Source: Schmidtea polychroa
Taxonomy: Eukaryota
Reading direction: 5' to 3'
DNA: 64,000 bases
Assembly: GCA_044892525.1 (NCBI GenBank)
Contig: CM097885.1
Span: 14,200,001-14,264,000, forward strand
The notes below the pieces were generated by a model. That model had not been told where the DNA came from. It saw only the letters and a list, made by a program, of their open reading frames with translations, and did not search any database. Shown here in pieces: positions 9,829 to 28,154 of the stretch. Both the position numbers and the translations under genes were made by a program. Position 1 is the stretch's first letter. Every line of letters begins with the position of its first letter.

Positions 9829-9915
9829 CGCTGGAAAGGTGGAATCGAACCACTTCGGTGTCAACCGACTACAGGTTTGAAGCCTGCACCCCGGACCGCC
9901 GAGGCTCATCCCAGC
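9829..9915 (-). tRNA. tRNA-Sec (anticodon UCA)
   Basis: Minus strand reads GCTGGGATGAGCCTCGGCGGTCCGGGGTGCAGGCTTCAAACCTGTAGTCGGTTGACACCGAAGTGGTTCGATTCCACCTTTCCAGCG (87 nt). This fits the metazoan tRNA-Sec pattern with a long variable arm. TATA-like element near -30 and a T5 terminator. Confidence 0.95.
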
Positions 9916-15387: not shown

Positions 15388-15743
15388 ATTATTATTTTTA
15401 AAAAATATTATTATTTTATTATTATTATTCAAAATATTATTAGTGGTCCAGCGGGCTCCTGGTTTTCGTTTGCCCAAAAGTTGTCGTTCCAATCATTTTA
15501 TTTCATCGTTTGATAGCTCATTTTAAAGCTTAGTGCAAGACCTTTCGAATGAGCTATTGAAGGTATCATCATCATTAATATTGACAAAGTTATTATCGTT
15601 TTCCCGAGACCATTTTCAAGGTCATATAATTATTATTAGTATTAGTATTAATCTATATACTCCGAGTTTATCCGACAAAATATTTTGTCCCCCCTATGGG
15701 TAATGCTCACAAGGGTACTGCTCGCGCTCAACAACTCGCAATG

Positions 15744-15936: not shown

Positions 15937-16465
15937 ATGTCTCAATTTAGTGAAAATGTTCTAAACGGAATTGTCACCGCGAATATAGTCGACAGCCTCA
16001 ATTTCCTGATCAATCGAACTGAACAAATCATTGAAGGTGAACATATCGATTATCAGCAAATGATGGAGATAGAATCCCTGGAAACCAAGAAGTATTACTT
16101 CAATAGAATATTTCAGTGTCTTTTCGATAAAGACATGAAATGGACAAGGATAATTGTAGGATTCACCTACATGAAGATAATCATTGCAAAAGGTCAACAT
16201 GACTCAGAACATTATTATCAGTGGTCTTTAGAAGTAAGATTTCTTTTATAATCTACATATATATTTTAATAATATTCATTTCTAGATAATCAAGTCCAAG
16301 TTTACCCCATGGATAGAAGCCAATGGCGGATGGGGTGTATTAAATAAACTGGCCTGCAATTTTAAAGAAACTGATGAAATCAAAAGAAAAATGAAAAACT
16401 ATATAAAACTTACAACTGGAGTTGTTATAATGTATATTTTCTGTAGATATATGAATAAAAATTAA
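15937..16465 (+). CDS. Bcl-2-family protein, 158 aa; exons 15937-16233 and 16286-16465
   Basis: BH1-like LFDKDMKWTRIIVGF in exon 1. After a 52 nt phase-0 GTAAG..TAG intron, exon 2 gives BH2 WIEANGGW and a hydrophobic C-terminal tail (LTTGVVIMYIFC). Confidence 0.8.
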
Positions 16466-18372: not shown

Positions 18373-18810
18373 TTAGAAATCGACCAATGAAATTATCTCA
18401 TTTCGAACCTTGTCAACAAATTCTCTATACTCCAAATTTCTCAACCCCAACATGACAACCTTTCCACTAGCAAACACGTTGACACATATAGGGTTATATT
18501 TTAATAGTCTTAGTGCCGGAAACAATTCCGGTTCAAACATACAATCACATTTTTTCGACATGTTATATAGATTGATACTATGTCCCATATCCATAGTAAC
18601 GGTAATTGATTGGATTATAATATTATTTATTCGATATTGTAATTTATTAATATCCAAAGGTTTCTTACATCCCATGATTCGGCATTTACCAGTCTTGAAA
18701 AATATTATCGGATATTTCAGACTTCTATCGATAATTTGCTGGGGTTTCCCTGGTGGGAACCTCATATTCGATACATCAAAATTTCCTCGATAATTTATAT
18801 TTGCTAACAT
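18373..18810 (-). CDS. divergent TATA-binding protein (TBP) homologue, 145 aa
   Basis: Two TBP repeats: IIFFKTGKCRIMGCK, then IQSITVT, FEPELFPAL and VNVFASGKVVMLG (compare IFSSGKMVCTGAK, YEPELFPGL, IFVSGKVVLTG). Confidence 0.88.
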   Translation of the reverse strand: MLANINYRGNFDVSNMRFPPGKPQQIIDRSLKYPIIFFKTGKCRIMGCKKPLDINKLQYRINNIIIQSITVTMDMGHSINLYNMSKKCDCMFEPELFPALRLLKYNPICVNVFASGKVVMLGLRNLEYREFVDKVRNEIISLVDF

Positions 18811-20149: not shown

Positions 20150-21307
<1,158 letters not shown>

Positions 21308-25096: not shown

Positions 25097-25769
25097 GTAA
25101 ATTTAATTTATTTTAAGTAGTGTGGTTATATACCCAACCAAAACAGCCCTCCCAACAAAACATGCCTCCAAATCACTTAAGCTATTAGAAAAACAACCTA
25201 AAACTTATACTTTTATAGTATTTTAACCCTATATTTTGAAAACAACCACCCTTAATGACTCTAACTGTTTTAATCTTTAAAGCCTCAAACTCAAAAGCTT
25301 CAAACTAAAAACATAAAGAGAATAGAAAAGAAAATGGTATTATGAAAAAGTAAGAAGGCTACTTGAGGATGCCAACTAGCAAGTTGCTAATTGGCTAATT
25401 AAAAAAAATAAATGAAATCTTAATCTTGATGTCTTGAAGAATAAAAAATTTTATGAAAATAGTAAAACTGCTCTGAGAGGACAGTGGTATTTTTTTTTTC
25501 ACTGTCCTCTCAACAGTTTTTTTGATCCGGATCATTTTTTTTTTATTCAACCTCTTTCGTTTATCAAATCTCTTCCAATATACAAGCTGGCCAGGCTCAT
25601 AATCAGAATCAATTCGATAATAGCAGCACACCTTATTATTCGCTTCTCGCTCGAATACGATTTCATCGGCGTTTTAAGTGTGCTGCTCGAAAGTACAAAT
25701 GAATTCGAAAGTGAATTCGAAAGAGGTCCGAAAATAACTGAGAAATAAATGTGCACATTAAAGAATCGA

Positions 25770-25845
25770 TCCGGGGGTGTTCGAAAGACAGGTGGCGATA
25801 ATTACCGGTTCGCCACCATCACCCGTTTCAATATTTTTTTTTTCA
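25770..25845 (+). ncRNA. putative structured small RNA
   Basis: GC-rich nested stems (GGGTG/CACCC and GGTGGCGA/TCGCCACC), a B-box-like GTTCGAAAG, and a following T run. Confidence 0.35.
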
Positions 25846-25999
25846 TATTTATGTTTAAAAAATAATTAATTAATAAAAAAATAAAATAAAATAAAATAAA
25901 TAAAATAAAATATACAAGTACTTTATAAATATAAGATACCCACACTATTTTCAATATTATTTTCAAATTTTTAATATTATTTTATGTTGAAAAAAAACT

Positions 26000-26072
26000 A
26001 ACCTCAGATGTGATTTGAACCACTATCCATTTGAACCACTGTGCCAGTCTATTCCCACTGCGCCATCAAGGT
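26000..26072 (-). ncRNA. tRNA-like Pol III-type gene 3
   Basis: A box TGGCGCAGTGG, B-box-like GGTTCAAATCA, partial acceptor stem ACCTTG/TGAGGT, T8 terminator. Confidence 0.5.
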
Positions 26073-26319
26073 TTGAATTTTTGTCATTTTTTAGACTATA
26101 AATAATCGATTCAAGTTCTTTAACTCTTTCCTGTAATTGTTTCATTTTCTTCAATCTTATATCAGCAACATCTACAGCCTTCATATAAAAATGTCGATAC
26201 TTTTCATTATCTACCATCAACTCTTTGATGTATTCTAATGGTTCTTCTTCTCTTCTTTTCATTCTCTTATGTTTAACTTCATTCAATTCATTTCTCATTC
26301 TTTCTTTTAACTCATCCAT
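26023..26319 (-). CDS. hypothetical coiled-coil protein, 98 aa
   Basis: Charged helical ORF with a TAAAAATG start context. Confidence 0.55.
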   Translation of the reverse strand: MDELKERMRNELNEVKHKRMKRREEEPLEYIKELMVDNEKYRHFYMKAVDVADIRLKKMKQLQERVKELESIIYSLKNDKNSNLDGAVGIDWHSGSNG

Positions 26320-26489
26320 TTTTATAAATATTTTTTTATTGGATATATTAATTTTTGGTAGCTTAAGTTAAAACGTTTTTGATCTTAAATTTCCAAGAGT
26401 TGCCGTTGACCAATCTCATTAAAAATTTGTACAAGTACTAAATCGAGTATGCTGATCAATATTTCGTTAAAAAAAAATTTGAAAAAAAA

Positions 26490-26562
26490 TGACCGAAATG
26501 GGATTTGAACCCATTGGTATTGGCAATGCAGTCGAGTGCTATTACCACTAAGCTATTAGAGC
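26490..26562 (-). ncRNA. tRNA-like Pol III-type gene 2
   Basis: A box TAGCTTAGTGG, D stem GCT/AGC, perfect T arm ATGGG-TTCAAAT-CCCAT, T8 terminator; no anticodon stem. Confidence 0.6.
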
Positions 26563-26731
26563 TATACTCAATATAAAATAAGTTGTTAATGTGTGACTAT
26601 TTATTGATGAAATTAATAATTAATTATTCATTTTCTCGACAACTACCACTCAGATCCATTTGAAAATTTAAATATATACTAAAATCAGTACGCTGAATCA
26701 GATTCCGTTGAAAAAAAATATCGAAAACAAT

Positions 26732-26805
26732 TGACCAAAATCGAAAATTGAACCCGGTACTCCCGGTGATAAATTTGAAGCCTATTCCCACTCCGCTATA
26801 ACGGC
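26732..26805 (-). ncRNA. tRNA-like Pol III-type gene 1
   Basis: A box TAGCGGAGTGG, degenerate B box GGTTCAATTTT, ends TTGGTCA like gene 2, with T4 and T8 runs downstream. Confidence 0.45.
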
Positions 26806-26861
26806 TTACATAATATATTTAATTAATCCTATTGTGTGTGTGTAAATTTTAATATATAAAA

Positions 26862-28154
26862 ATGAATAATATAAATCTTAAAATTCAAGAAAAAAATAAA
26901 TTAAATCTTGATTATAATAAAGAATTTACTCATGAAATCAAGAAAAATGATGTACTTAAAATATCCCCTACGTCAGGATCGATTGCAAACTTAAATCGTA
27001 GGGGTGATATAGTTTTTCAATCTCTTCAAACATCAAACCCTATAGATATTTGTAATGCCAAATTATATTATAAAATCGAATTAGAAATTGAAGCAAACAA
27101 AGATATAACCCTAGAAAATAATTTCTTTCCAAATTTATTCTCCAACATGAGATTAAAACTAGGATCATCAGAAATTGAAACTGTTTTGCATCCGGGAGTA
27201 TATTCTACAATGTTAAATTTTATTTTGACTGGTTGTGATTATAAAAACGAATATGGTGAATTAACAGGTTGGATTCCTGATGTTAATAAAGGGGATTTAG
27301 ATAAAGATGGTTTAGATGTAAACCATGGTTACCATAAAAGAGCTGAACTTTATAAATCTAAAAAATTTGAAGGTTATTTTGAATTAAAACACTTGTTTGG
27401 ATTCCTTCAAAACTATAATCGTATACTTCATAATGTTTTTATAGAATTCATCTGTAATAGAGTAGAAGGTGATAAAAGATTGTTCTATGGAGCTGTAGAT
27501 ACAAAAGCTAAATTAAAATTATCAACACTTGAATTACATATACCTGAATGGACATTAAACCCACATTCTGAGATTAAACTCCTTGAAAGATTAAATTCCA
27601 ACAAGTCTATAAATGTAAATTATTTAAATAGAATCTGTAGTGAATTTAGTATGACAGAGGGTTCAACATATTCTATAAAGGTAGCAAATTTAGCATACCG
27701 ACCAAGATATATCTTGATTGGATTCAAAGAAGTAGATTCATCTTTCCAAAAAAATAACAACTTGTTTATTCAAAAGATTGGAGTTGATAATTTAAAAACA
27801 ATCCAAATTCAATTAAATAGTTCTTATTATCCAATAAATAGAATGGAATTTAATATTGAAAATAATGAAAACATATTCCCATATCTAAATTATATTGAAA
27901 CATGTTATGATTTCAAAGTTGAACCGCAATTAAGTTTAGAAGATTTCAAAAATTTATATTCTATATTTTGTATGAATGTATCAGACCAAGATGATCGCCT
28001 AGCCATAAATAATGTTGATGTTACACTTCATGTAACAAAGGATTCTAATTTTAAAGCTAAAGTATATACATTAATATTAGAAGAAAAGAAAATAGAAATG
28101 AAATTATATGGTGGAAAGATTTCAATAATCGAAAATGTTAGGGGAGATTCTTGA
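26862..28154 (+). CDS. major capsid protein, Polinton B
   Basis: 430 aa; LENNFFPNLFS..LGSSEIE, LKHLFGF, RPRYILIGF and QLNSSYYP resemble the second Polinton MCP group. Confidence 0.8.
   Translation: MNNINLKIQEKNKLNLDYNKEFTHEIKKNDVLKISPTSGSIANLNRRGDIVFQSLQTSNPIDICNAKLYYKIELEIEANKDITLENNFFPNLFSNMRLKLGSSEIETVLHPGVYSTMLNFILTGCDYKNEYGELTGWIPDVNKGDLDKDGLDVNHGYHKRAELYKSKKFEGYFELKHLFGFLQNYNRILHNVFIEFICNRVEGDKRLFYGAVDTKAKLKLSTLELHIPEWTLNPHSEIKLLERLNSNKSINVNYLNRICSEFSMTEGSTYSIKVANLAYRPRYILIGFKEVDSSFQKNNNLFIQKIGVDNLKTIQIQLNSSYYPINRMEFNIENNENIFPYLNYIETCYDFKVEPQLSLEDFKNLYSIFCMNVSDQDDRLAINNVDVTLHVTKDSNFKAKVYTLILEEKKIEMKLYGGKISIIENVRGDS

Follow-up and report, generated by a model that had tools for sequence, protein, structure and literature searches.

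The window analysed here is a stretch of 64,000 nt of the Schmidtea polychroa genome (contig CM097885.1, positions 14200001-14264000), and the genome searched with it has 781 Mb and four large contigs. The window contains two Polintons of different families, named A and B below, and a near-perfect 30-kb duplicate: positions 2686-32509 and 34181-64000 are 99.95% identical with an N gap between them, and the 1.8 kb that bear the units described here are repeated without any mismatch at +31491. This duplicate is probably an assembly artefact.

Pfam searches of the window returned integrase, A32 ATPase and double-jelly-roll (DJR) capsid families, i.e. a Polinton/Maverick gene set, and from 25116 inward the genes of Polinton B follow in the order capsid, PLA2-integrase and ATPase. 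The polymerase pPolB (DNA_pol_B_2) was found in the sister copies L158 and L160; the single ORF examined in L156 gave no DNA_pol_B_2 match. Most loci that extend far enough share the left boundary, right ends carry an inverted copy of 25116-26093 (L159, L160/L161), and a 6-bp target-site duplication surrounds the L106/L159 element, one of two end pairs checked. Polinton B combines pPolB, integrase, ATPase and DJR genes with long terminal inverted repeats (TIRs), AG...CT ends and the 6-bp duplication, as defined for Polinton/Maverick elements. The first 28 nt of its capsid gene have 1,448 genomic matches at up to 3 mismatches, so that the copy number is well over a thousand, and all 98 scored capsid copies are 99-100% identical, which makes this a very young family. 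The features of the left arm are as follows.

25116-26093, left TIR of Polinton B, about 980 bp, starting with AGTAGT and containing U0 and U1
25464-25822, minus strand, U0: tRNA-type head, T4 at 25734-25731, multi-hairpin body, A tract at 25544-25535, hairpin of about 21 bp and T4 at 25467-25464
25805-25815, minus strand, A box of U0, one mismatch to the consensus, identical in 76 of 78 distinct copies
25762-25772, minus strand, B box of U0, GGATCGA type, 44 nt from the A box; its three main variants (74 of 78 copies) fit the box
26000-26072, minus strand, U1: degenerate tRNA-like Pol III unit in the TIR with two tandem B-box-like motifs and T8 at 25997-25990
26023-26319, minus strand, 98-aa coiled-coil-like ORF whose end overlaps U1, missing from many copies
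26355-26849, 495-bp module common to Polinton B and the host rDNA intergenic spacer, just upstream of the capsid start
26490-26562, minus strand, U2: tRNA-like unit with T8 at 26489-26482, its 5' half nearest to host tRNA-Cys in a comparison with few isotypes; found 1-3 times in an rDNA spacer
26732-26805, minus strand, U3: tRNA-like unit with T at position 61 of the B box, standing back to back with the capsid gene, with 56 nt between its +1 and the ATG; found once in an rDNA spacer
26862-28154, plus strand, DJR major capsid protein gene of Polinton B (Pfam PF21738, E 1.9e-25)

Pol III-like boxes in the left arm

The original prediction had proposed three units of about 73 nt on the minus strand, and all of them lie where it placed them, at 26000-26072, 26490-26562 and 26732-26805. 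Each was said to have an A box, a B box and a T run, which is correct for U1 and U2, while the B box of U3 is imperfect (T instead of C61). In the left arm (25116-26861, 1.75 kb) we searched for pairs of A and B boxes at a tRNA spacing of 44-45 nt and compared the counts with 200 dinucleotide shuffles. Two pairs without mismatch were found (U1 and U2; shuffle mean 0.0) and four with at most one mismatch (U1, U2, U3 and U0; shuffle mean 0.015), and none of the 200 shuffles reached either count. The single mismatch to the box consensus is located in the B box of U3 and in the A box of U0, and U1 and U2 have none. Oligo-T terminators follow, with at least six T at +74-77 in 108 of 110 copies of U1, T8 in U2, T7 in most copies of U3 and T4 twice in U0; in the window copy, the first T run of U3 contains a private G, a difference from 45 of 47 other copies. 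These sequence features support U1, U2 and U3 as Pol III type-2-promoter-like units.

The anticodon stem was rightly predicted to be missing, with 3/5 pairs in U1, 2/5 in U2 and 2/5 in U3 compared to 5/5 in two host tRNAs. Low scores had also been expected from covariance models, and only U2 passes the Rfam tRNA model (32.4 bits at a cut-off of 29, E 5.5e-4), U1 and U3 being unlisted. ARAGORN made no call on U1, U2 or U3. A functional tRNA gene is ruled out by the ARAGORN result and by an anticodon stem of 1-3/5 pairs in all units. A tRNA-derived SINE, which had been named as a possible source, is likewise unsupported, as free dispersed copies with their own target-site duplications were not found: all 20 U2 matches fetched among 40 listed, and all 20 unpaired U0 matches fetched among 100 listed of 3,076 counted, lie inside Polinton ends, the latter in TIR context together with U1. 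Where copies of U2 or U3 were seen outside Polintons, they belonged to the rDNA spacer or to a spacer-derived satellite.

The best global matches to possible parent tRNAs were Trp for U1, Cys for U2 (Lys close behind) and Lys for U3. The comparison took in Lys, Arg, Cys, Trp, Sec and two array variants only, and with so few isotypes these parents are tentative. The genome-wide Rfam tRNA search scored 63 of 112,431 candidates. Between the boxes, the similarity among U1, U2 and U3 is weak, since 12-21 of 500 shuffles were as good. The flanks of U2 and U3 align, as predicted (downstream flank score 78 versus 44 for the best of 300 shuffles), whereas the U1 flank could not be aligned with that of U2 or U3 (61/300 and 72/300 shuffles as good). 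Host tRNA genes are present nearby and elsewhere: tRNA-Sec is located in the window at 9829-9915 on the minus strand, and other host tRNAs form long tandem arrays, e.g. Trp (862 matches, period 284 bp) and Cys (period 281 bp).

U0 and U1 in the terminal inverted repeats

Since U0 and U1 lie inside the TIR, both are present at each end of the element and point outward. Consistently, 3,209 genomic copies of U1 and 3,076 copies of U0, counted by a 20-mer of its A box, were found, about twice the number of capsid starts. Among the first 100 of the U0 matches, 18 adjacent pairs at 10-20 kb distance are outward and 2 inward. U1 was recovered in 36 of 36 loci, 35 of which had been picked by the capsid gene, so that the sister copies carry it as the original prediction required; it is doubled in 5/36 loci and is both polymorphic and mosaic (33 variants in 47 loci).

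Variation in U1 is not spread evenly. Among 94 copies, 21 recurrent polymorphic sites were counted and 0 of them breaks one of the 16 box positions (hypergeometric P 0.002), and with capsid-picked loci only, 19 recurrent sites in 41 copies gave P 0.004; both P values are optimistic, because the copies are related and their independence is overstated. Pairing of the acceptor varies from 3 to 6 of 7 and that of the T stem reaches at most 3/5 among copies. Boxes and terminator are kept and the stems drift, which points to constraint on the promoter rather than on a folded RNA.

The distance between U1 and the capsid gene depends on the allele. In the simplest alleles (8/46 loci), U1 and the capsid gene stand back to back, with 37-40 nt between the +1 of U1 and the ATG. 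In alleles with the 98-aa ORF and without the module (12/46) this distance is 294-328 nt, and in alleles with the module (26/46) U3 lies 55-56 nt from the ATG. The arrangement of U1 beside an ATG is also found at right ends (e.g. C1:73039342 in L160), and the 577 such sites counted genome-wide mix left and right ends and are thus unusable as an allele frequency. At right ends the TIR reaches inward to the 16-nt ATG context of the capsid start (L160:9342-9414 and many other sites), which suggests that capsid and polymerase-side genes may share a start element beside U1. The 98-aa ORF gave no Pfam family and its atlas matches are all unnamed; its presence varies among copies, and a common U1 allele frameshifts its last codons.

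U0 was overlooked by the original prediction. Its product is predicted to be an RNA of about 355 nt with ends placed by inference. The first T4 stands at +88, straight after the head, and the head forms no cloverleaf (acceptor 3/7, T stem 2/5). The region 25430-25860 folds far better than shuffled sequence, with z-scores of -7.6 for the minus and -5.7 for the plus strand, and folding of U0 as DNA gave -7.7. An alignment of 78 distinct copies, which also supplied the structure tested, has 29 broken pair cells among 8,155 on the minus strand, where G-U cells outnumber A-C cells by 1,022 to 12. When the fold of the window copy was used instead, with 102 distinct copies, the pair is kept by 13 of 19 paired-site variant types compared to 36% expected (P 0.005, again optimistic because the copies are related), including all ten variants seen in at least 5 copies; in the plus-strand test 7 variant types keep the pair and 13 break it. 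Two-sided compensatory variants number 2. A GGGT/ACCC pairing is predicted in the 5' hairpin of U0 (25824-25775, 25823-25776); the GGGU/ACCC pair of VA RNA belongs to a central domain, and the pairing in U0 may be due to chance.

The original prediction had regarded the three units as analogues of adenovirus VA RNAs. For U1-U3 this is poorly supported: their fold z-scores are -0.08, -2.45 and 0.62, and they lack VA-like long duplexes. The analogy fits the neighbouring U0 better, which, judged by its sequence, appears to be the better VA/TMER-like candidate. Rfam gave nothing significant on U0 and no miRNA or VA family. U0 was absent from the rDNA loci compared, and a diverged host source for it is possible.

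The U2/U3 module and the host rDNA spacer

Two matches of a diverged U2 query are located between 28S and 18S genes, and the whole module occurs in 12 of 14 rDNA loci at 93-95% identity. Of these 14 loci, 12 had been picked by 18S alone, and 10 of the 12 carried 26355-26850; of the two loci without the module, one has a short spacer lacking it and one is cut by the contig end. In the spacer the units form an array in the order U4-U3-U2, U2 being present two to three times, which gives 4-5 degenerate tRNA-like units antisense to the rRNA. The array (L223:1841-2635; L229-L240) lies about 3-4 kb upstream of 18S and the boxes of U4 are perfect; the rDNA spacer of L231 is shorter and the array is absent from it. 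The closest spacer match to the module of Polinton B is found in L244/L250, with 96.6-96.8% over 498 nt. In these two loci a fragment of rDNA spacer with a single U2 adjoins sequence of Polinton A.

Within the Polintons the module is optional, being present in 24 of 36 loci, and U2 and U3 are missing in 12/36. It was detected at a minimum of 537 of the 1,448 capsid starts (at least 37%, a lower bound from an exact pattern). Exact empty sites with AATTT microhomology were seen at 5 of 20 junctions among those listed. Furthermore, a satellite with 86% identity to the spacer continues along it for 166 nt beyond the Polinton boundary. The flanking rRNA genes, U4 and the additional U2, the empty sites and the satellite favour the spacer as the older home. 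Given the spacer match of U2 and U3 and their absence from 12 loci, the conservation of their boxes probably predates the Polinton.

The sequences divide very probably into two origins, with U0 and U1 as fixed parts of the TIRs and U2 and U3 common to the rDNA spacer. One cluster of three units made by the Polinton is not supported, as U2 and U3 match host rDNA.

The direction of the exchange was studied with a tree of the U2 side, which comprised 25 of 74 Polinton copies (random draw), 17 spacer copies and 4 satellite copies and was rooted on the satellite. In the best tree the spacer clade (99/98) is nested inside the Polinton copies. This nesting is unstarred (86/82); monophyly of the Polinton copies was not rejected (p-AU 0.077) and occurred in 2% of the bootstrap trees. 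The tree leans against a single one-way capture from rDNA, and concerted evolution of the rDNA together with later gene conversion could cause the nested pattern. It is quite improbable that the exchange went from Polinton to rDNA, with a Polinton arm as source of the spacer array, or of the version seen now, and concerted evolution as the means of its spread. The nested best tree speaks for this, as does the spacer fragment next to Polinton A DNA; opposed to it are the unstarred nesting and the p-AU of 0.077, the U4 and greater number of U2 copies in the spacer than in the Polinton, the older satellite that tracks the spacer past the Polinton boundary, and the exact empty sites in Polintons. 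The spacer is likely to be the donor of the U2/U3 module, a direction that the tree leaves unproven.

Inside the Polinton, U2 and U3 gave no sound indication of selection after the exchange. A Fisher p of 0.036 (sites without any shared allele, 0/147 in the units versus 10/338 in the flanks) was dropped as an alignment artefact; most of those 10 flank sites are edge positions or belong to homopolymer or dinucleotide runs. The tRNA-like array in the rDNA spacer itself represents a second lead.

A proposed terminal Pol III cassette and its alternatives

We give an even chance to the following explanation: Polinton B carries an outward-pointing Pol III cassette of U0 and U1 in its TIRs, U0 acting in trans and U1 in cis, with U2 and U3 of the rDNA-spacer type as passengers. 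Host TFIIIC would bind the A and B boxes and load TFIIIB on the AT-rich DNA upstream. U0 would give a long structured RNA that may serve in trans as a dsRNA decoy or hairpin precursor against small-RNA silencing by the host, as TMERs, EBERs and VA RNA. From U1, a U-tailed RNA of about 75-80 nt would be made; as its sequence drifts, the main job of U1 within this proposal would be in cis, where it may hold open the AT-rich stretch between itself and the first inward gene, back to back, and act as a tDNA-type barrier at the element edge. One sub-lineage would have added a piece of rDNA spacer, in which U2 and U3 would be mostly passengers, U3 restoring by chance a Pol III unit beside the capsid start. 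Several features speak against the proposal. The T4 after the head of U0 could end transcription there, the head forms no cloverleaf, two-sided compensatory variants number only 2, and the G-T pairing could also reflect a single-stranded DNA structure. The nested spacer copies in the tree and the lack of such boxes in Polinton A likewise count against it.

Contigs of three runs guessed to be RNA (X1 and X2 of study P1, X7 of study P3) and of a DNA-like run (X3) were placed on 30 bins. Any cover was seen in 29 bins with X1, 23 with X2, 15 with X7 and 30 with X3. Contig depth peaked at 25528-25741 (5.0k and 10.0k in X1, 19.3k and 5.4k in X2, 65 and 46 in X7) and was raised in the U1 bin (346, 1241 and 9), with 7, 0 and 0 in the U2 bin, 12, 3 and 0 in the U3 bin and 0.64-2.6 million across bins in X3; such depth gives no strand, ends or level, cannot rank gene parts, and its holes prove nothing. 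Seven X2 contigs have loose poly-T ends before 25535, and the internal A tract of U0 could bias oligo-dT libraries. The cover on U0 and U1, among most other parts, is only a lead towards Pol III transcription.

It appears rather unlikely that all units work in cis at the DNA level, as TFIIIC-bound barriers or promoter helpers, with the U0 fold as a single-stranded structure for protein-primed replication and any RNA incidental. Such a role would agree with the placement of the units in both TIRs and their back-to-back arrangement with the first inward genes, with the retention of the U1 boxes but not of a fold, and with a DNA fold of U0 that exceeds shuffles by far (z -7.7). However, the common U0 variants are of the G-U wobble type and keep the pairs on one strand only, and the layout of U0 resembles a transcript with promoter, body and a terminator directly after the last hairpin.

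The idea that U1-U3 are small RNAs which evolved in the Polinton as VA analogues and act in trans against antiviral or RNAi pathways of the host, as originally predicted, now has a low probability. All three have A and B boxes and T runs in many copies, and in MHV68 one tRNA-like module alone has an in vivo effect (excerpt of PMC4337559). Nevertheless, U2 and U3 match the rDNA spacer, are missing from a third of the loci compared (12/36) and gave no sound sign of selection after the exchange, U3 is without C61 in its B box, and a conserved fold is absent. Neutral relics, i.e. decayed captured tRNA genes or SINE heads hitch-hiking in a young expanding family, are improbable as a general explanation: in so young a family presence alone says little, SINE insertion was proposed as source of the tRNA-like heads in Helenus LTRs (excerpt of PMC10886601), and for U2 and U3 inside the Polinton the neutral reading may well hold, but the variation of U1 avoids the boxes, its terminator is kept and the variation of U0 keeps the pairing.

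The cassette proposed for U0 and U1 has several counterparts among known systems. TMERs of MHV68 resemble U0 in forming a cluster at the genome end and in having a 5' tRNA-like head, hairpins and an alternative stop after the head (excerpt of PMC4337559). They differ in that the head of U0 is without the acceptor and T stems needed by RNase Z, that no hairpins follow behind U1-U3, and that the Polinton B units sit in the inverted repeats of an integrated element. VA RNA I and II, for which an origin from tRNA has been proposed, occur as head-to-tail pairs, form long duplexes and have intragenic A and B boxes and a U4 terminator; VA RNA acts as a decoy for Dicer and Exportin-5 (excerpt of PMC7589676). 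VA RNA measures about 160 nt and is built of a terminal, a central and an apical domain, whereas U1-U3 have 73-75 nt without long stems and U0 has about 355 nt and another fold. Membership in the VA RNAs is ruled out by size and fold, and the Rfam scans gave no VA family.

The retroelements Helenus, Ajax and Cassandra likewise have a degenerate tRNA-like sequence in their terminal repeats, in which only the A and B boxes are conserved (excerpt of PMC10886601). Their promoter makes the RNA template of retrotransposition, whereas a Polinton is copied as DNA and its units point outward. PLVs, virophages and MELD viruses have tRNA-type genes too, with 558 tRNA matches in a PLV/virophage set (excerpt of PMC12220804), and tRNA flags are mentioned in a figure legend (excerpt of PMC8502044). 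These tRNAs are read as working and as codon compensation; in contrast, the Polinton B units are without cloverleaf and were not called by ARAGORN. TFIIIC binds A and B boxes and loads TFIIIB upstream, and such sites represent chromatin barriers; in tDNA/TFIIIC barriers, including that of yeast rDNA, the A and B boxes are needed in cis at domain edges (excerpt of PMC7990762). By comparison, the Polinton B units are degenerate and lie in a mobile element or inside a spacer, and a barrier role for them is putative. Planarian Polintons are nuclear PIWI targets that are silenced with H3K9me3 (excerpt of PMC8532177).

In the literature searched, with Repbase reports, most subscription papers and supplements outside its scope, nothing was found on Pol III or tRNA-like units in the ends of animal Polintons or on a tRNA-like array in the planarian rDNA spacer. 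Viral Pol III RNAs (VA, EBER, TMER and BLV miRNAs) are known from vertebrate viruses and are thought to derive from tRNA genes, and adenoviruses have been proposed to descend from Polinton-like elements. If the proposal is true, the same design would exist in the TIRs of an invertebrate endogenous Polinton with a traceable exchange with rDNA, which would show how such genes arise, and one could then test in a simple way if Polintons encode RNA counter-defences to piRNA silencing. A further step is less likely than not, namely that animal Polintons already carry a VA/TMER-like TIR cassette, that an abundant structured RNA made by about 3,000 U0 copies blunts PIWI/RNAi silencing and that further Pol III modules were recruited from the rDNA-spacer array.

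In Polinton A, the second high-copy family, 10 stretches were scanned at up to one mismatch without finding A/B units; one box match with 1 mismatch was found at window position 15444. No relatives were found among viral contigs, and metagenomes gave 18 relatives, mostly too short to contain element ends, with no credible A/B unit and one chance-like match. With Polinton A and the metagenome relatives devoid of A/B units, generality across Polintons is unsupported. Rfam searches on 7 Polinton stretches gave no match at E <=0.5.

A metagenome Polinton relative with 50% capsid identity (L163) contains a hairpin on the minus strand at 1810-1889 that matches Rfam mir-754 with 48.6 bits where the cut-off is 84 (E 5.5e-8); T7 comes next and A/B boxes are absent. 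As miR-754 is a planarian miRNA family (excerpt of PMC3854530), some annotated planarian miRNAs may be Polinton-borne. Searches of the S. polychroa genome by family, pattern and DNA, run without a positive control, did not find mir-754.

Three minor observations concern Polinton A in the window. It encodes a TBP-like protein at 18373-18810 on the minus strand (Pfam TBP, E 5.6e-15); TBP is also a subunit of TFIIIB. Near its end there is a weak Bcl-2-like ORF at 15937-16251 on the plus strand (E 0.0023, below the cut-off). Finally, an (ATT)n microsatellite at 20530-20680 lies in frame in the integrase ORF of Polinton A, where it gives a poly-Ile run.
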